Below are positions 1,052 to 17,102 of a stretch of DNA of 17,239 nt, piece after piece (position 1 is the stretch's first letter; each line of letters begins with the position of its first letter). The translations under genes were made by a program, and so were the position numbers. This stretch comes from Promethearchaeota archaeon. Lineage in GTDB: Archaea; Asgardarchaeota; Lokiarchaeia; Sigyniarchaeales; SOKP01. The notes under the pieces were generated by a model. It was given only the letters and a program-made list of their open reading frames with translations. It did not search any database and was not told the DNA's origin. Where the stretch lies: positions 1-17,239 of the forward strand of contig JAHLWP010000057.1 in assembly GCA_019057865.1 (NCBI GenBank), read 5' to 3'.

Positions 1052-1071
1052 ATGACTAAAAAAATTGTCAA
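1052..1071 (+). promoter_or_regulatory. Putative operator, ATGACT-N8-TGTCAA, upstream of module A
   Basis: Imperfect palindrome 139 bp upstream of ATG 1211, with the same 6-8-6 geometry as the sites at 6200, 11203 and 11340. The flank ATTGTCAAATTATTAATTC (1064-1082) resembles the minus-strand ATTGTCAAATTTATTAAATTC upstream of module B. Confidence 0.5.
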
Positions 1072-1210: not shown

Positions 1211-1840
1211 ATGGAAGTCTTAGAACTAAAACCTGTAAAGGGAAAAAAAGTATATTTATATCTAATAAAAAAAGAAGATCGAGAATTATTTGAATCAGAA
1301 TATGAGGATCTTAAAGAAATTATAAAAAAAAGGAACTTCAGGTTTGCCATAGTTGATTTTAATGATAATGATTCAAAAGAGTTATATCAAACTGCTTTAT
1401 TAAAGTTTTTGAAAAAGTTTACACTCCCTTATTACAACATCGATATTCCTGAAAATGCTAAAAATTATTTATACCACGAAATTTTAAGGGAAGAGGTTCA
1501 AATCAGCGAATTAGAAGAGGAATATGAAAATCTTTATTTGAATGAACAACAAGATACATTTAAAGCTCAAAACTTGAAATCTTGGATTGATTTATTAAAA
1601 ATAGAAGTAGAATATAAGAAAAAACATTTGGAATTAATTATAAAACCTAAATGGATTGTAAAAAAAGTGTTAGATATTGTTAATGAAATTAAACATGATA
1701 AATTATCGATATTACATTTTGCTCCAGAAAAACTATTTTCTGAATTAAAAAGTTTATTTGAAGAATATAATATCAAGGTCATAAAATATGACATGAATAA
1801 AATAGATATGAAATCAATTGTAATACAAGAGAGGATTTAA
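1211..1840 (+). CDS. Uncharacterised alpha/beta protein with a helical-hairpin insert ('VLELKP' family, subtype 1); paralog of 10468..11082
   Basis: 209-aa ORF, collinear with the 204-aa ORF: MEVLELKPVK (both), FAIVDF/FVTVDF, IDIPENAKNYLYHEI/VDIPEYAMGYLYVEI, LKSWIDLL/LKNWIDMI, PKWIVKKVLDI/PQWIVKKMLDI, LSILHF/ISFLHL. Confidence 0.85.
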   Translation: MEVLELKPVKGKKVYLYLIKKEDRELFESEYEDLKEIIKKRNFRFAIVDFNDNDSKELYQTALLKFLKKFTLPYYNIDIPENAKNYLYHEILREEVQISELEEEYENLYLNEQQDTFKAQNLKSWIDLLKIEVEYKKKHLELIIKPKWIVKKVLDIVNEIKHDKLSILHFAPEKLFSELKSLFEEYNIKVIKYDMNKIDMKSIVIQERI

Positions 1841-1844
1841 AGAA

Positions 1845-3506
1845 ATGCAAGTTTTAGAATTAAAACCTTTAAAAAATAAAAATTTGAAATTAATTCTAAT
1901 TGAAAGTGAATTTCCCATAGATTGGGTTTTCGAATTACCAAAAGAAGAAAATATTCTTGGAAACTTATTTTTTGTATCTAAGGAATATATTGATTTTATT
2001 AAGGGTTTAGTGAATCAACATCATCCTGATTTTGTGGTGGACGATAAAAGAATGCGCTCAGATAACGAAATTGCTATAGAAGATGAATTTGGCTTTATTT
2101 TTAGAGAAACAGGAATCCCCTATCAATTTGTTGATATTCCAGATTATGCATTAAATATTATTTCAACACCTTTAATGGATAAAAAGGCTTTTATTAAAAA
2201 ATTCTCAGATGAAATTGAAAATTATAGGAAAAGGGGTAGAGTTCACTATAATGATCCTCATTTTCAACAATTAGTTATATGGAGAGAATTTTTAAAAGAT
2301 GATTTTAAATCACAAGAAGATGAGATAAGATATAAAATACGTGAATCATGGATGATGATGGGGATTTTAGAATTAGCAAAAAAGCAGGAGAAAAAACAAA
2401 TAAAAGCTTTTTTCATATGCGATAAAAGACATTTTGATGAGATTGTATTCTTAGCTAATGAATTGAATATTAGTACTGAAATAATTAATATCAAAAAAAT
2501 TGCTAAAGATCTCGATGATACAACTTCAATTAAGGATTTAATGAAAAAATCAGTTCTTGAAATAATACCTATCAAAGTAAAGAAAAAAGAAAAAGAAGAG
2601 AAAATTTTATATTTTTTTGATACAGATGATTACTGCTCTCCTTTTGATACCAATATGGGATATGATGCTGGTTTTAATGTTGTTATACCTTATTGTAAAA
2701 TGACAGCAGATAGGGTCACTAAGTTGGTACAAGATGCTATTTTTTCTAGAAAAGCGGGAGCTCCAACTGTTTTTTTTGTAGGCGGGTCAAATGTTGAGGA
2801 AAGTGAAAAAATAGCAAAAGAAGTATTAAAAGCAATTGTTCCACCCTTTGAATCTCCGGTTATAATAGATCCAAGGGGAGCACATACAACTGCATCCGCA
2901 ATAGTTGCTAAAACTCTACAAGTGGCAAGAAATCATGGGACAACATATATTTCAGGAAAAAAGGTAGTTTGCTTAGGTGGTACTGGTCCGGTAGGCCAAA
3001 TATCTGCTTTAATTGCCTCAAAACTAAATGCAAATGTAGTAATAATTTCTAGAAGAGAACAATTTGTAAAAGAATTAGCGAAATCACTAACAAAGAAAGT
3101 AGGTAAAGGGGCAAACAAAATAACAGGTGAAGTGGCAAAATCAGAGGAACAATACTATAAAATTGTAAAAGATGCAGATGTAATTTGGTCGGTTGGTAAA
3201 GCAGGAGTTCAAATGCTATCTAGAGAAGTAATTAAACAGTTAACATCAAATAAAATAATAGTAGATATTAATCTAGTCCCACCCTATGGTTTAGAGGGGA
3301 TTAAACCAGAATTTGATGATGTTGAATTCTATCCTGGTATTTATGGAATTGGTGCTTTGGGTATAGGGCGGTTAAAGTATAAAGTTGAGAGGAAAATTTT
3401 CACAATGGCAATTAGGACAAAGGGTAAGAAAATTTTTGATTATAATATCGCTTTTGAAATTGCTAGTAAAATATTATTTGGCGAAGAAGTTAAAATTTCA
3501 ATTTAA
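1845..3506 (+). CDS. mtdB: Fusion of a 'VLELKP' family (TraB/PrgY-like) domain (aa ~1-230) to a NAD(P)-dependent methylene-tetrahydromethanopterin dehydrogenase, MtdB-like (aa ~250-553)
   Basis: C-terminal part has MtdA/B motifs: SPFDTNMGYDAGF, VQDAIFSR, FVGG, DPRGAHTTASAIVA, GGTGPVG, DINLVPPYGLEGI, GALGIGRLK. N-terminal part is collinear with the 241-aa ORF at 9719..10444. GAGAGG RBS lies at the end of the upstream gene. Confidence 0.85.
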   Translation: MQVLELKPLKNKNLKLILIESEFPIDWVFELPKEENILGNLFFVSKEYIDFIKGLVNQHHPDFVVDDKRMRSDNEIAIEDEFGFIFRETGIPYQFVDIPDYALNIISTPLMDKKAFIKKFSDEIENYRKRGRVHYNDPHFQQLVIWREFLKDDFKSQEDEIRYKIRESWMMMGILELAKKQEKKQIKAFFICDKRHFDEIVFLANELNISTEIINIKKIAKDLDDTTSIKDLMKKSVLEIIPIKVKKKEKEEKILYFFDTDDYCSPFDTNMGYDAGFNVVIPYCKMTADRVTKLVQDAIFSRKAGAPTVFFVGGSNVEESEKIAKEVLKAIVPPFESPVIIDPRGAHTTASAIVAKTLQVARNHGTTYISGKKVVCLGGTGPVGQISALIASKLNANVVIISRREQFVKELAKSLTKKVGKGANKITGEVAKSEEQYYKIVKDADVIWSVGKAGVQMLSREVIKQLTSNKIIVDINLVPPYGLEGIKPEFDDVEFYPGIYGIGALGIGRLKYKVERKIFTMAIRTKGKKIFDYNIAFEIASKILFGEEVKISI

Positions 3507-4330: not shown

Positions 4331-5782
4331 ATGGAAACAAAAGAAGATATAATTGATTATTTACAATCTATTGATATGGGCATTGGTTTTCAAGATTTGA
4401 ATGAGCATGTGATAAGTAAAAATGCCTGTATTTTTTGTGGAGCATGTATATCACTTTGTCCTCGCATTGGGGTTAGAGATAATAAACCTGTGTTATTAGA
4501 TAGTGACCCAGAGTGTTCTATGTGTTTTAAATATTGTGCGAGGACATACTTTCCAGAAGAAATGTTTGAACAAGATCTTTTTAATGGTAATATTCCTAAA
4601 GACTTTTTAATAGGACATTATCAAAAGATTATTGCTGCAAAAAGCACAAATAAAGAGATTTTGATGGTTGCTCAAAATGGTGGTGTGGTAACTACCTTAC
4701 TTATTCATGCTTTAAATACAGGATTAATAGATGGTGTTCTTCTTGCAGATAGAGATGAAAATTGGGTGCCAAAACCAACAGTAGTACGGACTCCTGAGGA
4801 AATAATGCTCGTTGCTGGTTCAATATACACCATGACACCAACTCTACTTTCTTATTCTGATGCTATTAATAAATATAAACTTAAGAAATTAGCATTTGTG
4901 GGAATGCCGTGTCAAATTCAAGCAGTTCGTAAAATACAATTATGGCCGCCCCTTTCTGAAGAATATGGTAAATTTTCATTAATTATTGGGCTTTATTGTA
5001 CTTCAAATTATTCATATGACTTAATGGAAAAGCTTGTTCAAGAAAAGCTTAAAATAGAAATGAGGGATGTAAAGAAATTTGACATCTCTCGGGGTCAATT
5101 TATCGTTTACACTAAAAATGGTCAATACTGGCAAGTCCCAATACAAGAAACTAAAAAATATAATTGGTCTAGCTGTCAATATTGTAAAGATTATACTGCG
5201 GAATTTGCTGATATATCAGTAGGAAGTGTTGGGAAACCTGAAGGAAGTTGGAATAGTGTAATCATACGTACAGATATAGGTAAAAAGTTATTTGATGATG
5301 CGGTTACCTCTAAAAAAATGATTGTTGCCAATAATGTTAATCTGTCAAAAATTAAAGAAGAAGCAATGAAAAAGAAATCAAAAATCAAAAAATTGGATGA
5401 AAAAGTGTTTTCAGCTATGAAATTCTTAAAAATATCTGATCTTGAAATAAGAACTTATGCAATTCTAGTTTCTCTAGGTAACGCTGACCTACCAATGCTA
5501 AACAGAGTCATGAAATTAGAAAAAGAGGTTATCGATAATACCCTTGATTCATTAGTAAAACGTAAATGGGTAAAATCAACTGATGGATTTTATAAACCAA
5601 TAAATCCAACTAAAGTTATTAAGGATGAGATATATAAATTTAAGAAGGATATTAGGCGAAACATTGAAAGAATTAAAAAAGAAGCTATGGTTGATTTAGA
5701 GACATTATTTGAACAAAATAATCTTATGTATGTACGCTATGAAGAATATTTTGATCAAATTCTATACAAAGAAATACTGTAG
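4331..5782 (+). CDS. Coenzyme F420 hydrogenase/dehydrogenase beta-subunit family (FrhB/FpoF-like, N-terminal ferredoxin) fused to a C-terminal TrmB-like winged HTH and helical tail
   Basis: Ferredoxin motifs CIFCGACISLCP and CSMCFKYC. FrhB motifs AQNGGVVTTLL, GSIY, VGMPCQ, IGLYC, CQYCKDYTAEFADISVGSVG, GSWNSVIIRT. From about nt 5417, LKISDLEIRTYAILVSLG...IDNTLDSLVKRKWVKS..GFYKPINP fits the TrmB N-terminal wHTH pattern. GAGGT RBS. Confidence 0.85.
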   Translation: METKEDIIDYLQSIDMGIGFQDLNEHVISKNACIFCGACISLCPRIGVRDNKPVLLDSDPECSMCFKYCARTYFPEEMFEQDLFNGNIPKDFLIGHYQKIIAAKSTNKEILMVAQNGGVVTTLLIHALNTGLIDGVLLADRDENWVPKPTVVRTPEEIMLVAGSIYTMTPTLLSYSDAINKYKLKKLAFVGMPCQIQAVRKIQLWPPLSEEYGKFSLIIGLYCTSNYSYDLMEKLVQEKLKIEMRDVKKFDISRGQFIVYTKNGQYWQVPIQETKKYNWSSCQYCKDYTAEFADISVGSVGKPEGSWNSVIIRTDIGKKLFDDAVTSKKMIVANNVNLSKIKEEAMKKKSKIKKLDEKVFSAMKFLKISDLEIRTYAILVSLGNADLPMLNRVMKLEKEVIDNTLDSLVKRKWVKSTDGFYKPINPTKVIKDEIYKFKKDIRRNIERIKKEAMVDLETLFEQNNLMYVRYEEYFDQILYKEIL

Positions 5783-5856: not shown

Positions 5857-6090
5857 TTATTTTGTAATTTCTGCTTTTAATATATCAATTAAAGTTTTTA
5901 AATACTGAGCATTAAATGAATCTTTATTTTGTATTTCTTGATACGCATTAATGTACTCAGCTAATTGTTGTTTTTTCTTTTCTATTTCCCAATAAAGAAA
6001 TCCTTTTTTAAGTTCTTCCGCAAATTCATTATATTCAATATTAGTCATTTTAACTTCATTTTTATGTTTTAATTCAGCAATAATTTCCAT
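5857..6090 (-). CDS. 77-aa mini-paralog of the 'VLELKP' family (helical hairpin only)
   Basis: GFLYWEIEKKKQQLAEYINAYQEIQNKDSFNAQYLKTLIDILKAEI aligns with GYLYVEIGEKEDLLNLLFEEYVSMDNKDSYKGESLKNWIDMIREEI (204 aa) and NYLYHEI...QDTFKAQNLKSWIDLLKIEV (209 aa). Has its own upstream palindrome at 6200-6219. Confidence 0.75.
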   Translation of the reverse strand: MEIIAELKHKNEVKMTNIEYNEFAEELKKGFLYWEIEKKKQQLAEYINAYQEIQNKDSFNAQYLKTLIDILKAEITK

Positions 6091-6199: not shown

Positions 6200-6219
6200 T
6201 TGACAATTTTATTTATCAA
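6200..6219 (-). promoter_or_regulatory. Putative operator, TTGACA-N8-TATCAA, upstream of the 77-aa gene
   Basis: TTGACA attttatt TATCAA, about 110 bp upstream of the minus-strand ATG at 6090. Arms are identical to those at 11203-11222. Confidence 0.55.
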
Positions 6220-6318: not shown

Positions 6319-8580
6319 TTACCCATAAAGGGAAGGCTCTTTAATGTCTTCTTCATAAGACATTTTTGCCCTTTTAGCGTCTTTAGTTATTTTTTCTATA
6401 GCTTTTTTAAAATCATCTTTGGTAATTTTTGTTTTTATAAATGTTGATATGTCATAATCATTTATTTGATTTTCAATAATACCTCTTCTAATTGCTAAAA
6501 TAGTAGCTTCCTCACAAATGCCTTGAATATCTGCACCAGTATATCCATCTAATTTTTCTGCTAATTCATCAATGCTGATATCCTCATCTATAGGACGATC
6601 TCCTAAGTGAATTTTAAAAATTTTAACTCGAGAGTCTTTATTAGGCAAAGGTATTTCAATATGTCTCCCAAATCTACCTGAGCGTAACAAGGCAGGATCC
6701 AATAAATCGGGTCTATTGGTAGCTGCTATTAATATGACATCTTTTAATCTCTCTAATCCATCCATCTCAGTTAACAATTGTGCAACTACTTGTTCACTAA
6801 CACGAGAACCAGATGATTTACTTCGTTTTAATGCAATTGCATCTATTTCATCGAAGAAAATAATACATGGTGCTGCTGTTCTTGCTTTTCGAAAAGTCTC
6901 TCTAACTGCTTTAGCACTCTCACCTACCCACTTAGATAAAAACTCAGGACCTTTTACTGAAATAAAATTTAATTCTGTTTCATGAGCAAGTGCTTTAGCC
7001 ATTAGAGTTTTACCTGTTCCTGGAAGCCCAAACATTAAAATTCCATTCGGAGGATTTGATTTCATATGTTTATAAAAGTGTGGATACTTGAATGGCCACT
7101 CAATTATTTCTCTTAATTGTTGCTTAGCATTTTCTAATCCTCCAATATCCTCCCATGTCTCTGTAGGTTGAGTAATAAGTACTTCTCTTAAAGCAGATGG
7201 TTCAATACTATTTATAGTTTTAACAAAATGTATCATCTTAAGCTTAAGTTTATTTAAAATTTCTTCTGGGATTGGTATATCTAAATCAATTTGTGGGAGT
7301 ATCTCTCTTATTGCAAGCATAGCTGCTTCTTTACATAGAGCTTTAATATCAGCCCCTACAAAACCGTGGGTTTTTTCAGCAATTCTTCTTAAATTTACAT
7401 CGTTATCCAAAGGAATTCCACGTGTATGAATTAATAAAATTTCATAGCGTCCATTAGTATCAGGAACTTTAATCTCAATCTCTCTGTCAAATCGTCCTGG
7501 TCTTCTTAATGCAATATCAATATTATTAACTTTATTTGTTGCTCCAATTATTATAATTTCACCTCTTCCTTCTAGGCCATCCATAAGGGAGAGTAATTGA
7601 GCTACAACTCTTGATTCTACCTGGCTTTTACCTTCCTCTCTTTTAGGAGCAATCGAATCTAACTCATCAAGAAATATTATTGAAGGTGCATTTTTTTTTC
7701 CTTCCTCGAAAACTTTCCTGAGATTTTCTTCGCTTTGACCAAAAAATTTACTCATAATTTCTGGACCACTAATACTAATAAAATGTGCATCTGTTTCAGA
7801 TACAACTGCTTTAGCAAGTAAAGTCTTTCCTGTTCCTGGTGGTCCATGAAATAAAACTCCTTTGGGAGGGTCAATGCCTATCCTTTCAAATAATTCAGGA
7901 TGTCTTATAGGAAGTTCAATCATTTCTCGAATTTTTTGGATCGATGCTTTCAGACCTCCTATATCTTCGTAAGTAATTCTTTCACGGAGTTTCTGTAACT
8001 TTTCTTTTAAATCTCTGATCTCCTCATATCTTAACTTTGGTTTGCTAACTATATCAAATTCTTGATGTTTTTCTGTAAAAATTATTTTAGTATTAAGATT
8101 AATTTTAACAGCTTCAACTGAAGGAGTATAATCTATTACAACTAAATCAATCCGATGCGCCATAGCGTAAAAACTTAAACTATCACCTTTAGTAATAACT
8201 CTGTGTTCTAATTTTCTTGCTAATGCTTGAGGGTCTCGTGGTATCAATGAATCGTCTAATCCAGCAAATGTAATATTTTGGGCTAAAATAGCCTGAATTT
8301 TTATTATATCAACTAGATCATCGATTGAAGCTCCAATATTTCTTCTAAGAGATGGATCCATACGTATTATCTTCTTATTTTCATCTTCAATTTTTCCAGT
8401 AGACAATAATGCAGCAGTCTTTTTCCTATTTAATGGATGGGTTATTTCAATAACATCCCCCACTTTTAGATTTAATTCATTAATCACATCAGGATCGATC
8501 CTTACAATACCTCTGCCAGCATCTTCTTTAAAAGCATCCTTTATCCTTACCTTCATATTTGCGTTTATATTATCAGACAT
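6319..8580 (-). CDS. cdc48: CDC48/VCP-family AAA+ ATPase (753 aa from the likely start MSDNINAN)
   Basis: N domain ([11 protein letters not shown]). D1: [29 protein letters not shown]2: [32 protein letters not shown]-terminal HbYX (LYG). Start moved from 8649 to ATG 8580 because AAGGTGG precedes it and the extra N-terminal residues translate an A/T tract. Confidence 0.95.
7924..8037 (-). repeat. Diverged in-frame tandem duplication (2 x 57 nt) at the N-D1 linker of Cdc48
   Basis: [19 protein letters not shown] (8037-7981) directly precedes the canonical [19 protein letters not shown] (7980-7924). Confidence 0.7.
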
Positions 8581-8668
8581 TCTATCCACCTTATTTACCC
8601 TTACAAAACTCCTGTATTTAAATAAAAAAGAAAATAAAAAAATTAACACATATTAATAATTAATTTTA

Positions 8669-9667
8669 TTATTTAGATAATAAATTTTTAGCAATCTCGA
8701 AAGCATAATTATAGTCAAAAACCTTTAAACCTTTTGTATTAGCTGCTTCTTTAAGTATTTGCCCTTCAGAATTTGCTTTAAGACGCCCTATTGCTAATGC
8801 TCCAATTCCGAAAATTCCTGGATAAATTTCTTCATTATCATGTTTTGGTTTTATACCTTCAATTCCATAAGGTGGAACTAAGTTGATATCAATAACAATT
8901 TTTTTACCTTTTAGTCTTATCATCAAATCTTCAGGTAATACCTCAATACCTGCTGCAGCTAAAGACCAAATAATATCAGCGTTTTGAGCAACTTCAAATC
9001 TTTTCTCAGGATTTGGGGCAAAAATCCCCTTTATTGGAAGAACTCCTTCTCCAGCTTCTTCTGTCAATTCTTTAGTCAAATTTACAATAAATTCTTTATT
9101 TGATTTATCCCATGTTTCTACTATATACATATCACATCCAATTTTTGCTCCTAATATAGCTGCAATTCTACCAACTGGACCTGCACCATAAATTACCACT
9201 TTTTTCCCCTTCAAATCTGAAATATTATGCATTTTTTTAGCAACATCAACAGTCATTGCAACTACTGCAGATGCAGTAGTATGAGAACCACGAGGATCAA
9301 TTATCACAGGACATTCAAAAGGCGGAACAAGCGATTTTTTAACTGCTTTTGCAATTTTCTCACCTTCTTTTACATTTGACCCCCCAATAAAAAAAGTGGT
9401 AGGCGCTTTGGGTTTTCGTGAAAAAATGGCATCTTGAACTAACTTTGGAACTTGATCAGCACTCATTCTGCTAATTGGTACAACAATATCAAAGCCAGCA
9501 TCATAAGCCATATTGATATCGAATGGAGATGCATTATCATCAGTATCAAAAAAGTAACAAATCTTATCTGAACTATCTTTTTTCTTGATAATAATTGGAG
9601 TCAATTCGATTATTGATTTTCTTCCAAGAATAGATTTAATTTCCTCTTCTATATCTCCCTTTTGCAT
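8669..9667 (-). CDS. mtdB: NAD(P)-dependent methylene-tetrahydromethanopterin dehydrogenase, MtdB-like (stand-alone copy with N-terminal extension)
   Basis: ASPFDINMAYDAGFD, VQDAIFSR, FIGG, DPRGSHTTASAVVA, GAGPVG, DINLVPPYGIEGI, GALAIGRLK. GAGGTG RBS at 9683-9678. Confidence 0.88.
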   Translation of the reverse strand: MQKGDIEEEIKSILGRKSIIELTPIIIKKKDSSDKICYFFDTDDNASPFDINMAYDAGFDIVVPISRMSADQVPKLVQDAIFSRKPKAPTTFFIGGSNVKEGEKIAKAVKKSLVPPFECPVIIDPRGSHTTASAVVAMTVDVAKKMHNISDLKGKKVVIYGAGPVGRIAAILGAKIGCDMYIVETWDKSNKEFIVNLTKELTEEAGEGVLPIKGIFAPNPEKRFEVAQNADIIWSLAAAGIEVLPEDLMIRLKGKKIVIDINLVPPYGIEGIKPKHDNEEIYPGIFGIGALAIGRLKANSEGQILKEAANTKGLKVFDYNYAFEIAKNLLSK

Positions 9668-9718: not shown

Positions 9719-10444
9719 TCAGAGCTCCAATACAATATCTTTTTCAAGCTCTTCTTTTACTTCTTCTGTCTTAATAGTACGTTTAATCTTGATCTTTTCA
9801 GTATCAACATCTAAATCAGTGGCTAGTTTTTCTATGCCATTGAAATGTCTTAAATCACATATAAACAGACCTTTTAAATTTTTACCCTCTACCTTTTTCG
9901 CGAGATTTAAAATATTCATCATCATCCAAGCTTCTCTAACACTGTATCTGACTTCATTCTCTTGTTGGTCATAATCATTTTGTAAATATTCTTTCCATAA
10001 AACTAACCTCTGAAATAGTTCGTCATTTTCAGGAACTCTTCCTTGCTTTTCAAGAATTCCTCTTATTCTGTCTTCAAGTTTTTGGATAGTAGATCTATGC
10101 TCTTCTAAAGCAGTGGATAGATAATCTTGAGCATTTTCATCAATATCTACATGCTTAAATGGGATGCTTTTTGTCTTAAATAATTCTTCTAATGGATTTT
10201 TTGAGTTTGTAAACTCATCCCAGTTTGTAGGTTTTTCTTCTGCTCCAAAATCAGGTTTATATTTAGTAATAAGGTCTTCAATAAGTTGAAGATACTCTTT
10301 TGAAATTAAATGTAAATTCCAAACAAGGTCATCTTTTATTTTTTTCGGAGCTTCAAACCACCAATCAATTGGAAATTCACTTTCAACCATTATTAATTTT
10401 AAATGCTTTTCTTTTAAAGGTTTTAATTCTAAAACTTTAGGCAT
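9719..10444 (-). CDS. 'VLELKP' family subtype 2, TraB/PrgY/GumN-like fold suspected; paralog of the N-terminal domain of 1845..3506
   Basis: Collinear motifs: VLELKPLK, ESEFPIDW, SKEY, PDF, IPFKHVDIDENA/IPYQFVDIPDYA, FQRLVLWKEYL/FQQLVIWREFL, RYSVREAWMMMNIL/RYKIRESWMMMGIL, FICDLRHF/FICDKRHF. AGGAGG RBS. Confidence 0.85.
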   Translation of the reverse strand: MPKVLELKPLKEKHLKLIMVESEFPIDWWFEAPKKIKDDLVWNLHLISKEYLQLIEDLITKYKPDFGAEEKPTNWDEFTNSKNPLEELFKTKSIPFKHVDIDENAQDYLSTALEEHRSTIQKLEDRIRGILEKQGRVPENDELFQRLVLWKEYLQNDYDQQENEVRYSVREAWMMMNILNLAKKVEGKNLKGLFICDLRHFNGIEKLATDLDVDTEKIKIKRTIKTEEVKEELEKDIVLEL

Positions 10445-10467: not shown

Positions 10468-11082
10468 TTAAAATTCAATATTAATTATATTATGTTTTTT
10501 AACATATTGAATAACCTTTACATTTAACGCTCTAAGTTGTTCTGTCACTTCTGAGCATATATCCTCACAGATATCTTCTTGTACTAAATGAAGAAATGAA
10601 ATTTGTTGCTTTTTATAGTTCTTTGCAATATCTAACATCTTTTTGACAATCCATTGGGGTCTTAGTTTCAAGCTAATAAATATCTCTTTTGCTTGAATCT
10701 CCTCTCTTATCATATCTATCCAATTTTTAAGACTTTCTCCCTTATAAGAATCTTTATTGTCCATACTTACATATTCTTCAAATAATAAATTCAATAAGTC
10801 TTCTTTTTCACCAATTTCTACATATAAATATCCCATTGCATATTCAGGGATATCTACTTGATGATATTTTATCCCTAATTTTTCTAATGCTTGTGCCAAT
10901 TCGGATTTTCTAAATTCTCTCATATTAACAGTAAAATCGACAGTAACAAAATCAATCCTTTTCTTTTTCAAAAAATCACTCAATTTTGGAATATCAAAAT
11001 CATGAAAATCACCTTTACTTCTCTTGGCAATATATGCACAGATTTGTTTTTTTTTTACTGGTTTTAATTCCAAAACTTCCAT
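10468..11082 (-). CDS. 'VLELKP' family subtype 1; paralog of 1211..1840
   Basis: 204-aa ORF with GAGGT RBS, collinear with the 209-aa ORF over its full length. Confidence 0.85.
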   Translation of the reverse strand: MEVLELKPVKKKQICAYIAKRSKGDFHDFDIPKLSDFLKKKRIDFVTVDFTVNMREFRKSELAQALEKLGIKYHQVDIPEYAMGYLYVEIGEKEDLLNLLFEEYVSMDNKDSYKGESLKNWIDMIREEIQAKEIFISLKLRPQWIVKKMLDIAKNYKKQQISFLHLVQEDICEDICSEVTEQLRALNVKVIQYVKKHNIINIEF

Positions 11083-11178
11083 TCTATTTTCTACCTCTTA
11101 AAAAAAATTTACTTTTCTTTTTAATTAAAAATTGTATTAATTCTAAGATAATATTCCTTGAGATGGAATTTAATAAAT

Positions 11179-11222
11179 TTGACAATAAAAATTATGTATA
11201 TTTTGACAACATTAATTATCAA
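11179..11222. promoter_or_regulatory. Tandem putative operators in the divergent promoter: TTGACA-N8-TATGTA (11179-11198) and TTGACA-N8-TATCAA (11203-11222)
   Basis: Read directly from the sequence. A TATA-like TTTATTAA on the minus strand lies immediately gene-proximal (about 11170-11177). Confidence 0.55.
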
Positions 11223-11339
11223 GATCTTATTTTAACAAATTTTTTAATTATAGAAATCCGTAACTTAATTTATGGTATATAGAAAAAATCTCCCATATAG
11301 ATCATTACATTTAAATTCTTGATCACTATAATTATTATG

Positions 11340-11359
11340 ATGATTAATTAATTTATCAA
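11340..11359 (+). promoter_or_regulatory. Putative operator, ATGATT-N8-TATCAA, upstream of the wHTH-hdrA-mvh operon
   Basis: Same 6-8-6 geometry, 73 bp upstream of ATG 11433. Very AT-rich, so a weaker match than the others. Confidence 0.35.
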
Positions 11360-11432
11360 AATAATTTATGTTGAATTTTTTTTTTTTTAAATTTTAAATT
11401 CAGTTTAATAAAAAAATGGAAGGGATAGACAA

Positions 11433-13979
11433 ATGGATTTATACTCTATATTATCTCACGAATTTAGAAGAAAAATTTTATTACTTCTTGAAAAAGAAGG
11501 ATATATTTCTTACACAGATTTAATGGTTAAACTTGGTCTGGATCAAACTGGTCAATTAAATTTTCATCTTAAAAAACTTGGATCTCTGATAAATAAAAAT
11601 AATAAATCCTATTATTTAACTGAAGATGGGAAACGTGTATTAAGAATATTAAATCTTAACAAACGTATTCTTTCTGGTGAAGAAATTGATTATCTCGATT
11701 CTAAAGGTAGTGGGATCAATAGAATTGGTGTTATTATTTGTAATTGTAATACAGAGATTTCGAATGTAATCAATATTAACCATTTAGAAAATTATGCAAA
11801 TAAATTAACTAATGTAGTTTCAGTAAAGATTCTTGAAAATCTATGCCAAGAGAAAAATTTAGATAAAATTGCCAACTGGGTTAAGAATAATTATTTAAAT
11901 AAGGTAGTTATTGCTGCTTGTTCTCCAAAAACGCATCAACATATTTTTGAGAGAATTTTTCAAGAGGTTATTGATAATGCAAATATTGAAATAGCAAATA
12001 TTAGAGAACAATGTTGTTGGGTTCATCATTCTAACATGAGAAATATAGATCATTTATTAGCATTAAAAAAGGCTCATTTACTTATTGAAGCAGCAGTTGA
12101 ACGTGTTAAACTTCAAAAAGAGGTCAAAATAAAAAGAGTTGAGGTAGAAAAAAGTTGTGCTATACTAGGAGGTGGTATCGCTGGGATGACACTAGCATTA
12201 AATTTAGCAAGAGCAGGAATAAAAGTATATATTATAGAAAAAACACCTACATTAGGAGGAAAAGTAGCGAGATGGCACCGAATTTATAAAATGGGAGATT
12301 GTTCAATTTGTTTTATTTCAGAATTAATTGGGGAGATTGTAAAAGAAAAAAATATTGAAATTTTTACCAATACTGAGGTGAAAAATGTCTCTGGTGAGGT
12401 TGGAAACTTTATAATTGATTTAATAAGAAAACCGCGATATATTGATGAAAAAAAGTGTACTGGGTGCAAACAGTGTATTGAAATTTGTGGGATAGAAAAA
12501 GTGAATCAATATGAATTTGGTTTAAACAATAGAAAAGTTATCTATATTCCATTTCCTAATGCATATCCTTATGCTCCTATTATTGATGAGGAAGATTTAA
12601 AAAATTGTTTAAATTGTAGAATATGCGAACGAGCTTGCGTGAATAGTGCGATTGACTTGAATCAAAAATCTGAGGATATTAAAATCAAAGTAGGAGCAAA
12701 GGTAATTGCGATTGGGGCTGATCTTTATTCTGAATTAGATGCTTACCATTATAATCCAAAAAATAATATTATTACTTCATCTGAATTTGAAAGAATATTA
12801 TCCTCAGATGGAATTACAGATGGTAACATCTTGAGAATCTCAGATAAAAAACCTCCAAAAACAATCTCAATCATTCAAAATGTTGGACCTTCTAAATCTA
12901 AAGAAAATTTTATGGATCCTGTTGCCTATAAATATTTAAGTTGCATAAAAGTAAAAAATCCTGATTGTAAAGTGAATGTATTCTACGATTTAAGTAAAAT
13001 TAAAAATAATGATGAGTACATTCTTAAATCTACAGACCCTAAATTTCACTATTCAAAAAATATTAAAATTGAAAATGAAAATAATCAAAATATTGTGATT
13101 ACTAACTCAGAAAAATTTCCAAGTGATTTAATAATTTTAAATCTAAATTTAATACCAAATAAAGATCTAAAAAAATTCCGTAAAACAATGGATTTTACCT
13201 TAGATGATAGGGGGTTCATGAGTGAGGAGACTTTAGCTTCTGGTATTTATGGAGTAGGTACAATTTTTGGACCATTGAACTATCATTCCACTATCTCTAC
13301 AGCTAATAATGTAGCAGTAGAAATTATCTCACTTCTATCACAAAATTATTTAATATCTGAATTTGCAGGAATAGAAATTAATGAATTGAAATGTGGTTTA
13401 TGTAGATTATGTGTGCAATCTTGTCCATATAATGCCATAATAATTGAAGGAGATAAAATAAATATCGATAAATTTAAATGTAAAGGCTGTGGAACATGTG
13501 TAAGTGTGTGTCCTACAAATGCTATTGATTTGAATATTGATACTTCCGAAAAAATACTTAAAACAATAGAAGTTTTTTCTAAATTCAATAAAAAACCAAA
13601 GATTATTACTTTTTGCTGTAAATCTTGTGGTTATGCTGCTGCAGATGACGCGGGATTAAAGAAATTATTCTATCATCCAAATGTGTTTATAATTAAAGTT
13701 CCATGTACTGGTCGTATTGATACAGAATTTATACTTAAATCTTTTGAGGTCGGATTTGATGGTGTAATGGTTATTGGATGTAGAAAAGATGCATGCAGAT
13801 ATATCGATGGAATTCAAAAAGTTCAGAAAAAAGTAAACCTGTTAAAGAAAGTATTAGGTCCACGATTAAGTAGAAGGATTATTATCAAAAATCTGAATGC
13901 TGTAGAAGGTGCCAAATTTTCAAATACAATAAATAAATTTTATAACGTATTATCGGAAGAGATCAGGTTTGAAACTTAA
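11433..13979 (+). CDS. hdrA: Triple fusion: ArsR-like winged HTH + heterodisulfide reductase subunit A-like (partly degenerate) + MvhD [2Fe-2S] domain
   Basis: aa 1-75 (LSHEFRRKILLLL..GYISYTDLMVKLG..TGQLNFHLKKL...YYLTEDGKR) is a wHTH. HdrA motifs: RIGVIICNC, AACSPKTH, NIREQCCWVH, GGGIAG, EKTPTLGG, DCSIC, four CxxCxxCxxxC, ITSSEFER. MvhD motifs: FCCKSCGYAAAD, VPCTGRID, GFDGVMVIGCRKDACRY. Confidence 0.9.
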   Translation: MDLYSILSHEFRRKILLLLEKEGYISYTDLMVKLGLDQTGQLNFHLKKLGSLINKNNKSYYLTEDGKRVLRILNLNKRILSGEEIDYLDSKGSGINRIGVIICNCNTEISNVININHLENYANKLTNVVSVKILENLCQEKNLDKIANWVKNNYLNKVVIAACSPKTHQHIFERIFQEVIDNANIEIANIREQCCWVHHSNMRNIDHLLALKKAHLLIEAAVERVKLQKEVKIKRVEVEKSCAILGGGIAGMTLALNLARAGIKVYIIEKTPTLGGKVARWHRIYKMGDCSICFISELIGEIVKEKNIEIFTNTEVKNVSGEVGNFIIDLIRKPRYIDEKKCTGCKQCIEICGIEKVNQYEFGLNNRKVIYIPFPNAYPYAPIIDEEDLKNCLNCRICERACVNSAIDLNQKSEDIKIKVGAKVIAIGADLYSELDAYHYNPKNNIITSSEFERILSSDGITDGNILRISDKKPPKTISIIQNVGPSKSKENFMDPVAYKYLSCIKVKNPDCKVNVFYDLSKIKNNDEYILKSTDPKFHYSKNIKIENENNQNIVITNSEKFPSDLIILNLNLIPNKDLKKFRKTMDFTLDDRGFMSEETLASGIYGVGTIFGPLNYHSTISTANNVAVEIISLLSQNYLISEFAGIEINELKCGLCRLCVQSCPYNAIIIEGDKINIDKFKCKGCGTCVSVCPTNAIDLNIDTSEKILKTIEVFSKFNKKPKIITFCCKSCGYAAADDAGLKKLFYHPNVFIIKVPCTGRIDTEFILKSFEVGFDGVMVIGCRKDACRYIDGIQKVQKKVNLLKKVLGPRLSRRIIIKNLNAVEGAKFSNTINKFYNVLSEEIRFET

Positions 13980-14727
13980 ATTTTTGATAACATCACTTAC
14001 ATCCTGTAGTGGATGTATTTCTACATTAATCTCGAGTGATATATTTCCTCAGTTTTTAGAAAGAACAAATATTTCTTACTTTCCCTTTATCTCTGATGAG
14101 GATAAAATTGAAGAATGCGATATTGCTTTAATAGAAGGTTGTATTTCGATGGATTCACAAATTGAATTATTAAAAGATATTAGAAATAATGCAAAAAAAG
14201 TATATGCTTTAGGTACTTGCGCTGCATTTGGGGGAATTTTAAGTTTATCTAAAAAGAAAAAAGCGGGTGCAATATCAGATATTGTTCAAATCGATGGTAT
14301 TATACCTGGTTGTCCTCCTCCTTTAAAACTAATAGGAAATTGTTTAATAAGATTAATAGAAAATAAAAAAATAGAATTATCAGAAAAAAATCTATGCTCA
14401 ACATGCCCTCTAAGAGGAAATAATAATATTCCTTTTGAAAAACAAATTTATAAATTGAATCCTTCTGGTGATGAGATAGCAACTCTTGATGAAATTTCAA
14501 ATTGCTTTTTAAATAATGGAATTTTATGCTTAGGACCAATAACTAGGGAGGGTTGCGATCATATATGTATAGAATATGGAATACCCTGTGAAGGATGTTT
14601 AGGGCCGGTATCTAAAGATTATACCTCAAATTTGATAAATTTCTTAAGTCTTTTTAATCTCTCTAAAGATTTAAGAAAATACAAAGGAATCTTTTATAGA
14701 TTCTCGAAACCAAAAATACGATGGTGA
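13969..14727 (+). CDS. mvhG: [NiFe]-hydrogenase small subunit, group 3 (MvhG-like)
   Basis: SCSGC, IEGC, GTCAAFGG, IPGCPP, CSTCP, CFL..GILCLGP, GC..IC...GIPCEGCLGP. TTG start overlaps the end of hdrA-mvhD. Confidence 0.9.
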   Translation: MKLKFLITSLTSCSGCISTLISSDIFPQFLERTNISYFPFISDEDKIEECDIALIEGCISMDSQIELLKDIRNNAKKVYALGTCAAFGGILSLSKKKKAGAISDIVQIDGIIPGCPPPLKLIGNCLIRLIENKKIELSEKNLCSTCPLRGNNNIPFEKQIYKLNPSGDEIATLDEISNCFLNNGILCLGPITREGCDHICIEYGIPCEGCLGPVSKDYTSNLINFLSLFNLSKDLRKYKGIFYRFSKPKIRW

Positions 14728-14731
14728 TATT

Positions 14732-16030
14732 ATGCAAAAAGTTATTGATGTTTGTACAAGGGTTGAGGGTCACGGTAATGTAAAAATTTTTATTCAAAAT
14801 GATGAGATTTCAAATGTGGAATTTGAAATTTTAGCCTTCAGGGGATTTGAAAATATTTTAATAGGTAAAAAGTTATCAGATGTTCCTAAAATTGTTTCTA
14901 GAATATGTGGATTATGTCATGCATCCCAAACTATAGTAAGTTGTAAAAGCATTGAAGATATGTATAATATAAAAGCCAATCACCAATCTGTTCTAATAAG
15001 AAGGCTCTTGATGGCAGGAGAGCTATTAAAATCGCATAGTATGCATTATTTTTTTCAATCTTTTCCAGATCTTTTAAATATTTTTAATATTTATACAAAA
15101 CCTATTGATATTTATGATTTAATAAAATATAATCCACAATTAACCTCACACATATATGATATAATTAAAATCGGAAATAATATAGACAAGATTTTTGGAG
15201 GAAGATCAATCCATACAATTACACCTATCCCTGGTGGAGTTATTTATAGACCATCACGGAAAAGGAAAAATATTGCTGAGAAATATTTTGCAAAGGTAAT
15301 AAGTAATTTAGAATGGATTATGGAAAATTTCATCGATTTATTCTCAGAATTTACTCCTCCAGAAGATTTTATGCTCCCAAATGTTAAATTTCTTTCATTA
15401 AATAACAATAGATCTTATGATAGATATGATGGTATTTTAACCATGAAAAAGGGCTTAACTAAATATCAGGATTTTAGGTTAGAAGAATATCTCAATTATT
15501 TTGATAAAGATCCTACAATGTGGGGTATTGATTTTGTTGATAAAAATCAGAATTATTTAGTCGGACCAATTTCTCGAAATCAAATTGTAGAAACTTATGG
15601 ATTAGATGAAATTTCCGGATATTTAAATCTTTTTGATAAAAAATGGAGAAATAATATTTTATTTGCAAACTTTTTAAGATTACTTGAAATGTTTGTAGAA
15701 TCACAGAATTCATTAAAAATTTTGAAGGATCCTATTTTAAAAAGTACCATTCCTCTTCCAAATTTTAGTTCGATTATTTCTCGAGAAGGGATCGGAGTTG
15801 TGGAAGCCCCTAGGGGGACACTTATTCATCATTATCGAATTAATAAAAGAAATATTCTTGAAGAGGCTAAATTATTTATAGCAACAGAAATAAATATACC
15901 ACTTATTAACGAAATGATTAGTAATTATGCGCGAAAACTTTATGAAAAAGAAGATATACATTCAGTTAAGAAAAAAATTCAAAAAATTATAAGAGCTTTT
16001 GATCCATGCATATCTTGTGCAACACATTAA
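14732..16030 (+). CDS. mvhA: [NiFe]-hydrogenase large subunit, group 3c-like (MvhA), without C-terminal extension
   Basis: TRVEGHG, RGFE, L1 SRICGLC, EAPRGTLIHHY, L2 RAFDPCISCATH-stop. GGTGA RBS overlaps the mvhG stop. Confidence 0.92.
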   Translation: MQKVIDVCTRVEGHGNVKIFIQNDEISNVEFEILAFRGFENILIGKKLSDVPKIVSRICGLCHASQTIVSCKSIEDMYNIKANHQSVLIRRLLMAGELLKSHSMHYFFQSFPDLLNIFNIYTKPIDIYDLIKYNPQLTSHIYDIIKIGNNIDKIFGGRSIHTITPIPGGVIYRPSRKRKNIAEKYFAKVISNLEWIMENFIDLFSEFTPPEDFMLPNVKFLSLNNNRSYDRYDGILTMKKGLTKYQDFRLEEYLNYFDKDPTMWGIDFVDKNQNYLVGPISRNQIVETYGLDEISGYLNLFDKKWRNNILFANFLRLLEMFVESQNSLKILKDPILKSTIPLPNFSSIISREGIGVVEAPRGTLIHHYRINKRNILEEAKLFIATEINIPLINEMISNYARKLYEKEDIHSVKKKIQKIIRAFDPCISCATH

Positions 16031-16073: not shown

Positions 16074-17102
16074 ATGTCAGATTTCTTTTCTGGAAATCAG
16101 AAGGATAGTAGCAAAGTTGCACAATTATGCGAGTTTTTTTTACTCTATTTTGATGAGAAATTAGGTCACATTCCCCTTTTAATTTCTCCTGATGAATCTT
16201 TAAAAGAAAATCGTGAAGTAATGCATTTAATTAGAATACATTCAATTTGGTTTCTTGATATTAGTGATCAAGCATCTCCTGATCGTATGGATATAGAATA
16301 TAGCGGTAAAATGTATTTTGCAAAAAAATTTTTAATTCCTTCTGAAAGAACTAAAAGAAGGGCCGGATTAGAAGAGGATATTAATGATACTATCGTATTA
16401 ATTCTTGCTTTACCGATTGACATGGATATCTTTGGAGGGGCATTATTAAAAAAAATGGCTGAGCGAATAACAAAACATTTTAAATCTAAAATTTATCATT
16501 TAATTGAGGCTGAAATTGCTAAACTTGATGTCATAAAGACTCCAAAAACTGAAGAACTAATCCAAAAAGGTGAAGCTCTCAAAAAAAGAATAAAAGCTTT
16601 AATTTATAATACTTGCTCACAATATTTTCAGTTGGTCATTAAACAAACGGATTCTACAACATTTAAAATTCAAAAAGCAATTTCTTATCTTTCTTTGAAG
16701 GGAGTTCCGATTAGTTATGTTATTAGTGAAAATAAGGAAATTGGATTTTCTAATATAAAATTATTTGATTCTAAAAATCTATCTCAGTATTCTTTTGAGC
16801 TGGGCAAAAATTTTAAGATTTTGCGTGTAAATGTTGATTCTGAAACTCAAGAAGTAGAAATAATAATTAAAAACAATACTAAAAATGAATTTAAAAATCT
16901 CTCTGTGAAAGTAATTACAATTCAGGATTACTTTGAAAAAGATATTTTTAACCAAATTATAGATTTTTGGCTTTCTGAAGAGGAATTAAATTTTGTTTTA
17001 CCACTTTTCCCTCAAATTAATGAATATTTTTTATATATTTTTGATGAAACTAATAAGGAAAAATTGCTTTCAAAAAAAATTGATATAAATTTGATTATTT
17101 AA
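16074..17102 (+). CDS. Hypothetical protein; N-terminal longin/uDENN-like domain and C-terminal beta-sandwich suspected
   Basis: 342-aa ORF. LLYFDEKLGHIPLLISP ... YFAKKFLIP..R..RRAG ... IVLILAL resembles the FDxxxG..P longin/uDENN pattern common in Asgard proteins. The C-terminus has alternating beta-strand pattern (VEIIIKNNT..FKNLSVKV). The fold call is inference. Confidence 0.6.
   Translation: MSDFFSGNQKDSSKVAQLCEFFLLYFDEKLGHIPLLISPDESLKENREVMHLIRIHSIWFLDISDQASPDRMDIEYSGKMYFAKKFLIPSERTKRRAGLEEDINDTIVLILALPIDMDIFGGALLKKMAERITKHFKSKIYHLIEAEIAKLDVIKTPKTEELIQKGEALKKRIKALIYNTCSQYFQLVIKQTDSTTFKIQKAISYLSLKGVPISYVISENKEIGFSNIKLFDSKNLSQYSFELGKNFKILRVNVDSETQEVEIIIKNNTKNEFKNLSVKVITIQDYFEKDIFNQIIDFWLSEEELNFVLPLFPQINEYFLYIFDETNKEKLLSKKIDINLII

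Follow-up and report, generated by a model that had tools for sequence, protein, structure and literature searches.

The stretch of DNA analyzed here (the window: 17,239 nucleotides (nt) of the forward strand of contig JAHLWP010000057.1, Promethearchaeota archaeon assembly GCA_019057865.1) carries a three-gene module in which an ArsR-like winged helix-turn-helix (wHTH) DNA-binding domain is fused to HdrA and MvhD, and in which the fusion gene is followed by those for the small and large subunits, MvhG and MvhA, of a [NiFe] hydrogenase. We put at about 0.6 the probability that this module is a low-throughput, hydrogenase-wired one-component repressor responding to H2 or redox state. As its flavin partner bears a DNA-binding head and a matching palindrome stands on its own promoter and before a few one-carbon and redox genes, this enzyme probably exerts direct control over genes according to H2 or redox state. 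A preliminary description of the sequence had read the module as a regulator of this kind; that reading is supported in part: the fusion, the intact wHTH, the synteny and a palindromic operator have stood, and the loss of HA4, the tail-less Gln-type MvhA and a separate canonical Mvh/Hdr in the genome, none of which it drew on, lend it further support, while redox-dependent DNA binding, with H2 as its input, is what we infer.

The window is the whole of contig C72 of a genome of 4.26 Mb and 29% GC, and its closest homologues are labelled Promethearchaeota/Lokiarchaeota. As working labels, C denotes contigs of this source genome (G000), G genomes, L loci and X contigs from other studies; among the genome families, f1 is the window's own, f2, f4, f5 and f6 belong to its class (Lokiarchaeia, Loki below) and f19, f21, f28 and f31 lie outside it. 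The survey covered 400 genomes of the phylum (Asgard), and 62 fusion loci and the upstream regions of 63 orthologues were compared; a separate homologue set comprises 117 full-length clusters at 90% identity, every one of them a wHTH-HdrA-MvhD fusion.

The fusion gene is one uninterrupted open reading frame that encodes, in order, a DUF7347 wHTH (residues 2-72), HdrA (97-714) and MvhD/FlpD (721-841). The match of the head to DUF7347 (PF24038; E 1.1e-11) scores 45.3 bits against a cut-off of 27.6, and the HdrA part matches the Protein Data Bank (PDB) entries 8RVU (E 1e-112) and 5ODC (E 5e-106). The AlphaFold2 model, with a predicted local distance difference test score (pLDDT) of 87, has winged-HTH topology at residues 3-80, as the preliminary description had anticipated, and an HdrA fold that matches 8RVU/5ODC (Foldseek E 4e-59, TM 0.83 by target). 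That description had also called for a check of the junction, which proves to be spanned by contigs of two other studies: X5, from an independent study of 2015, covers 10691-11873 with no differences at a depth of 92, and X7, from a related strain, covers 11434-11860. An assembly artefact as the source of the fusion is ruled out by these spanning contigs, by the 117 homologous clusters and by the many genomes involved. Far from being unique to one assembly, the fusion was detected in 121 of the 400 Asgard genomes, distributed over nine families (f1, with 92 of 135 genomes, f2, f4, f5, f6, f19, f21, f28 and f31), and in none of the 14 genomes of f3; a search of 1.84 billion representatives placed it in the Bathyarchaeia too, as one cluster among the handful that span both domains. 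The expected synteny is likewise general: mvhG and then mvhA follow the fusion in all sufficiently long loci among the 62 except one, in which the fusion itself is shortened.

By the measures available in the sequence, the wHTH head is intact and under selection, since among close relatives it has accumulated fewer residue changes per codon than HdrA (0.18 versus 0.25) at equal silent change. The profile of the head domain has the ArsR-like protein 1Y0U as its top PDB match (E 3.3e-6). Conservation within the domain is highest in its recognition helix, where T39-H45 does not vary among 66 Loki homologues and hardly varies across classes. A complex prediction with two wHTH copies scored 0.23, below the mark of 0.42, and thus counts neither for nor against a dimer of the heads. 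The genome encodes two further DUF7347 heads, one at C27 23750-23974, whose frame is some 659 codons long, and one in a 294-amino-acid (aa) protein at C23 224621-225502.

The HdrA core retains the ligands of the N-terminal cluster (C103, C105, C138, C163), the flavin adenine dinucleotide (FAD) motif, C290/C293, E453, K500 and both the inserted and the C-terminal ferredoxin domains; across the alignment, the FAD motif (G246/G248/G251), E453, K500, C290/C293 and the ligands of the N-terminal, ferredoxin and MvhD clusters are invariant. By alignment we equate E453 and K500 with the residues that we take to be E356 and K409 in canonical numbering. What has been lost is the HA4 [4Fe-4S] cluster, of whose four Cys the window protein has none; the full set occurs in none of the 117 Loki homologues, and the f21 orthologue has a single HA4 Cys. 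As HA4 passes the high-potential electron to HdrB (PMC13580544), the alignment indicates that the high-potential exit to HdrC/HdrB is removed in Loki HdrA. Relative to canonical HdrA the protein also has two deletions in the second flavin-domain segment, and it carries an extra Cys pair, C194/C195. In the canonical enzyme the Cys pair matching C290/C293 binds a ligand of unknown identity (PMC13580544) and the N-terminal domain belongs to a mobile arm that gates electron transfer (PMC12350162). The preliminary description had stressed the absence of hdrB and hdrC; neither occurs in the window, but both are present elsewhere in the genome, on C54 and C3.

The large subunit, MvhA, keeps Glu12 (E12), all four Ni-ligand Cys (the L1 pair being C59 and C62) and the canopy Arg. 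It ends at the L2 His without a C-terminal extension, as do its counterparts in 33 of 33 complete f1 loci, and its Gln66, four residues after the second L1 Cys, aligns with a His of canonical enzymes and is Gln in 38 of 38 Loki loci. We take this site to be the Gln position meant in PMC5665086. The lack of a tail and Gln in place of the conserved His are both traits seen in R. eutropha's regulatory hydrogenase, which senses H2 (PMC8229454, PMC5665086). By its best PDB matches (7T2R, 5ODC) and its best NCBIfam matches MvhA is nonetheless group 3-like; the large-subunit tree carried long-branch warnings and held no named reference sequences, so that we place it in no particular subgroup. A search with MvhA found only two [NiFe] large subunits in the genome, the other being of the split selenocysteine VhuA/VhuU type, located on C54 near hdrC-hdrB and hypFDE. 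There, at 14440-18756, lies a canonical hydrogenase with an in-frame TGA in a small VhuU-like frame, followed by hdrC-hdrB; a hydrogenase maturation protease is also encoded outside the window. Judged on these sequence features, the hydrogenase of the window looks like a second, sensor-type copy.

A palindrome, TGAYAA-N6-TTRTCA, recurs upstream of the fusion orthologues and, we infer, is a putative operator read by the wHTH of the fusion; the preliminary description had predicted a palindrome suited to a dimer. Perfect copies precede 26 of the 63 orthologues and copies within one mismatch 43 (shuffles gave 0.03 and 0.87), with enrichment at a spacer of 6 only; the count of 43 is partly circular, because the consensus was derived from those same regions. 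Only the later held-out tests are independent of the motif definition, and related genomes are not independent draws, which tempers the case for the operator. Another candidate palindrome, ATCATA-N5-TATGAT, was absent from the highest-ranking spaced palindromes. With a matrix built without this genome, the three best intergenic sites genome-wide (11204, 6201 and 1053) all fall in the window, each preceding a gene of one unnamed family, referred to here by its 204-aa member. The sites also have a consistent position: among 56 sites there are 31 instances of a TATA-like box that begins 9-11 nt ahead of the site or, for the second member of a tandem pair, 31-32 nt ahead of it, and such boxes are rare elsewhere. 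Because the site lies directly behind the TATA-like box, this spacing would correspond, by analogy with archaeal promoter layout, to the geometry of a repressor.

The sites also travel with the predicted targets. In the f19 and f31 loci a site directly precedes the Mtd-linked gene in 11 of 11 cases, although that gene lies downstream of mvhA there; in loci where an FrhB-like gene heads the operon, the sites precede that gene; and in five of five fusion genomes with a detached target operon, a site is found about 180 nt upstream of it. Among 14 genomes without a detected fusion, a strong site was present only in G256 and a weak one in G180. Beside the module of the Bathyarchaeia lies an operon for a hybrid [FeFe]-type hydrogenase, and a perfect palindrome that shares the core stands before that operon. 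In the locus concerned (L126:1378-11443, GCA_038882875.1), the module stands directly behind an operon of NuoE/F/G-like and HyhS-HydA genes (a group F-like hybrid hydrogenase), and an 18-bp palindrome is present in identical form at both 1313 and 12070. In L062, L063 and L081 an operator is also found beyond CDC48, ahead of a gene whose product of some 160 aa starts like an aminotransferase, at the place where the window has a broken copy of the 204-aa family (5860-6090, minus strand; stops in its 5' part, perfect operator at 6201-6218 retained).

The regulon indicated by these sites is small and local (table 1). The operon divergent from the fusion consists of two members of the 204-aa family and an MtdA-like homologue, and the family is present in 114 of the 121 fusion genomes versus 32 of the 279 others, counts in which kin are not independent. 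Members of the family often form the N-terminal part of a fusion with an MtdA-like enzyme. The model of the 204-aa protein (pLDDT 86) contains no HTH. In its fold search most matches were confined to the hairpin of helices, and ChaN 2G5G alone spanned the whole chain (Z 8.0, root-mean-square deviation 4.2, 147 residues aligned), and its relatives in the Atlas are unnamed Promethearchaeota clusters plus a weak TraB/GumN lead. Because the genome also encodes an F420-dependent Mtd beside the MtdA-like enzyme, the regulator may select the electron carrier for the methylene step by H2 or redox state.

Table 1. Features of the fusion module, its putative operators and its predicted targets (positions in the window)
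Feature	Position	Strand	Basis or remark
wHTH-HdrA-MvhD fusion gene, 848 aa	11433-13979	+	single open frame; domain matches, homologue clusters, AlphaFold2 model
ArsR-like winged HTH (DUF7347), residues 1-80	11433-11672	+	profile match, model, alignment; recognition helix 39-48
Flexible linker, residues 78-93, joining wHTH to HdrA N-terminal (mobile-arm) domain	11664-11711	+	pLDDT <50 in AlphaFold2 model
HdrA core with kept ligands	11721-13574	+	alignment, PDB/Foldseek matches
HA4 [4Fe-4S] cluster site, all four Cys lost	12876-12932	+	alignment to canonical HdrA; identified as HA4 by alignment
MvhD domain, [2Fe-2S] ligands kept	13593-13955	+	profile match and alignment
mvhG-like small subunit, cluster Cys kept	13969-14727	+	overlaps fusion gene by 11 nt
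mvhA, group 3 [NiFe] large subunit	14732-16030	+	4 nt behind mvhG; alignment, PDB matches
TATA-like box (11310-11316), then tandem putative operators 11320-11337 (2 mismatches) and 11341-11358 (1 mismatch)	11310-11358	+	fusion's own promoter
Putative operator, perfect TGAYAA-N6-TTRTCA	11204-11221	.	top intergenic score in genome; 122 nt before divergent 204-aa gene
Weaker operator copy, 2 mismatches, tandem with 11204	11180-11197	.	motif scan
Putative operator, perfect	6201-6218	.	second-best score in genome; about 110 nt before broken 204-aa family copy
Putative operator, 1 mismatch	1053-1070	.	third-best intergenic score in genome; 158 nt before second target-operon copy
Predicted target: 204-aa protein, family without a name	10468-11082	-	alpha/beta core plus a long hairpin of helices; faint likeness to ChaN/TraB
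Predicted target: 241-aa paralogue of the 204-aa family	9719-10444	-	many relatives have it fused to the Mtd-like enzyme
Predicted target: MtdA-like NAD(P)-dependent methylene-tetrahydromethanopterin dehydrogenase homologue	8669-9667	-	E 1e-31 to 6TGE/1LU9
Second predicted target operon: 209-aa family member (1211-1840), 553-aa family-domain/MtdA fusion (1845-3506)	1211-3506	+

The other genes of the window stand apart from the module. CDC48 (6319-8649) has no operator of its own and neighbours the module in f1 loci only. The 342-aa frame behind mvhA (16074-17102, plus strand) was considered as a further module part and ruled out, as it occupies that place in only some f1 loci; its product has no Pfam or NCBIfam match and one paralogue, at C37:21046-22077. 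At 4331-5782 (plus strand) an FrhB/FdhB-like F420-binding protein ends in a TrmB-like HTH (residues 364-425, E 1.8e-5, just below the cut-off), a second redox-enzyme/HTH fusion that is also found near the module in L077 and L088. The first kilobase or so (1-1050) contains no open reading frame of at least 80 aa and is possibly a decayed gene.

The electron path, the HdrA dimer, the mobile arm and the meaning of HA4 belong to known biochemistry, and a mechanism can be proposed from them. Electrons of H2 would be exchanged by MvhA and MvhG and would pass through the [2Fe-2S] cluster of the fused MvhD to the flavin and Fe-S chain of HdrA. Because the HA4 exit to HdrBC is gone, the Loki chain could not bifurcate to disulfide and would instead equilibrate with the potential of H2, probably also with that of ferredoxin. 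The wHTH is attached to the N-terminal domain of HdrA, which in canonical Hdr belongs to an arm that moves from one state to another, so that redox state or arm position could set the fit of the dimer's two wHTHs to the 18-bp palindrome and hence binding or release. Bound just behind the TATA box, the complex would block its own operon and the MtdA-linked operons and, in the Bathyarchaeia, the hybrid hydrogenase operon likewise. To the fuller proposal, that of an archaeal H2 sensor of independent origin in which a group 3 [NiFe] hydrogenase, a de-bifurcated HdrA and a gating arm that moves DNA-binding heads bring one-carbon and hydrogenase genes of Asgard and Bathyarchaeia under direct H2-to-promoter control, we give even odds.

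Several findings weigh against an H2-responsive repressor. The lack of hdrBC in the window is weak evidence alone, because these genes occur elsewhere in the genome and because all four HA4 Cys are still present in the orthologues of f19, f28, f31 and the Bathyarchaeia. As the large subunits of those same groups keep both the tail and the L1 His, the sensor-like traits are confined to Loki. Group 4 enzymes likewise have no tail, and the Gln seems uninvolved in H2 sensing itself (PMC5665086). The f31 large subunits (L055-L060) are without the catalytic Glu and canopy motif and those of f28 (L044-L047) without the L1 Arg and the last His, their fusions and small subunits being intact; because these catalytic residues are missing, it may be that not every member of the family senses H2. 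Finally, no good operator site accompanies the fusion in f4 and f28, and G256 has the site without a detected fusion.

The alternative that survives best, unlikely though we consider it, is an autoregulated metabolic enzyme of the PutA-like trigger type. Its main role would be that of a ferredoxin:H2 valve that does not bifurcate (copies with HA4 would instead bifurcate, with borrowed HdrBC), and its wHTH would repress its own and partner genes by assembly state, cofactor loading or reduced ferredoxin, not H2 as such. The invariance of the entire electron chain, including the FAD site, E453 and K500, the retained Glu, canopy Arg and four Cys of Loki MvhA, the HA4 site outside Loki, the hdrBC genes of the genome and the small, local regulon all agree with such an enzyme. 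The genome, however, has a separate canonical Mvh/Hdr; the Loki copies have lost HA4 and gained two sensor-type traits; there are non-subunit genes among the targets; and f31 keeps the module although catalysis by its large subunit is impaired, a condition more in line with signalling than with flux. The condition of f31 and f28, where the fusion persists without the catalytic residues of the large subunit (and, in f31, the operator persists as well), is also what would be expected if HdrA were the sensing part, with MvhGA as a structural or relic partner and with an input from ferredoxin, from a thiol/disulfide or from a ligand of the Cys pair C290/C293 and the additional C194/C195. That the equivalent Cys pair of canonical HdrA binds an unknown ligand (PMC13580544) accords with this, but we judge it improbable given that all catalytic residues of MvhA are kept in Loki, including the window, and that the gene triplet stays together in nearly all loci. 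Very improbable indeed is a wHTH that serves as a protein-contact or relic domain while another co-occurring regulator, for example the 204-aa family, reads the palindrome: the family accompanies the fusion in nearly all its genomes, G256 has a site without a fusion found and f4 and f28 lack a clear site, but the 204-aa model has no HTH, the f9 and f20 genomes have the family with neither fusion nor site, L126 has the fusion with the site core before its hydrogenase operon, and no part of the wHTH is better conserved than its recognition helix.

Among known systems, the closest in its parts is the electron-bifurcating MvhAGD-HdrABC complex found in methanogens (group 3c; PDB 5ODC, 8RVU, 9SW2; PMC12350162, PMC13580544), with which the module has in common the HdrA fold, the FAD site, the N-terminal and ferredoxin clusters, MvhD, MvhG and MvhA; the conserved flavin Glu/Lys, the MvhD [2Fe-2S], the MvhG clusters and the Ni ligands of MvhA are all present. 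Unlike that complex, it has an N-terminal wHTH, a tail-less MvhA, an operator on its promoter and no adjacent hdrBC; its HdrA has the two deletions mentioned above and, like that of other Loki copies, is without HA4. Identity to MvhAGD-HdrABC and HdrA2 is about 30%, and every NCBIfam score is far below its cut-off, although the domain order is that of HdrA2-type HdrA-MvhD fusions (NF040770). The group 2b sensors HoxBC-HoxJ-HoxA and HupUV-HupT-HupR (PMC5665086, PMC8229454) are likewise [NiFe] enzymes that control transcription, as is predicted here, and have no C-terminal extension and Gln for His near the Ni site. Since the large subunit of the window is group 3-like, outside the group 2 clade, these common traits would be convergent. 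The output also differs, being a DNA-binding domain inside the complex: no histidine kinase or response regulator is present in the window, and none is a conserved neighbour in the 62 loci, whose unlabelled neighbours are not all annotated.

With ArsR/SmtB-like (DUF7347) regulators the fusion shares the wHTH sequence, its fold and an inverted-repeat putative operator on its own promoter. In PutA an enzyme is joined to a DNA-binding domain and thereby governs a regulon of its own, the redox state of its flavin being the switch. The architecture and operator of the window system fit this type of trigger enzyme, with the switch as the proposed element. The archaeal RbkR (PMC5397151) also joins an enzyme to a DNA-binding domain, an archaeal wHTH with operators that vary by lineage. 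PutA and RbkR, however, are single-chain enzymes of small molecules, whereas the present system is a metallo-flavo complex of several subunits whose substrate is a gas; by analogy, it would work like a cross of a group 2b H2 sensor and a trigger enzyme of the PutA/RbkR type. The group C putative sensory [FeFe] hydrogenases, HydS (PMC8924675), embody the same idea of a slow hydrogenase that reports H2, but are of another enzyme class, bacterial, with a PAS domain and an output that is unknown. HdrR of Methanosarcina barkeri (PMC11218639) is also an HTH regulator tied to hdr genes; unlike the fusion, it is a stand-alone activator of hdrBCA, unfused to HdrA and without a hydrogenase. The preliminary description knew of no system with this architecture, and our literature searches found no paper describing a wHTH-HdrA-MvhD/hydrogenase system, an absence that is unproven as most subscription papers, including HdrA classification reviews, were outside their scope. 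The parts and the principle of an enzyme-repressor fusion are thus known; the wiring would be the new part, and the label of sensor depends on the proposed switch.

To our knowledge, how archaea sense H2 and adjust their gene expression is an open question, and models of the Asgard partner in the origin of eukaryotes give the exchange of H2 a central place. The module offers a defined and testable candidate, since it comes down to three genes, an operator of 18 bp, a regulon of small size and a set of specific residues. Genome surveys likely count such copies as metabolic group 3 hydrogenases and HdrA, and metabolic capacity would therefore be overstated. If the proposal is true, an electron-bifurcating scaffold has been turned into a signalling device, and the lineages that keep or have lost HA4 would be its natural intermediates.

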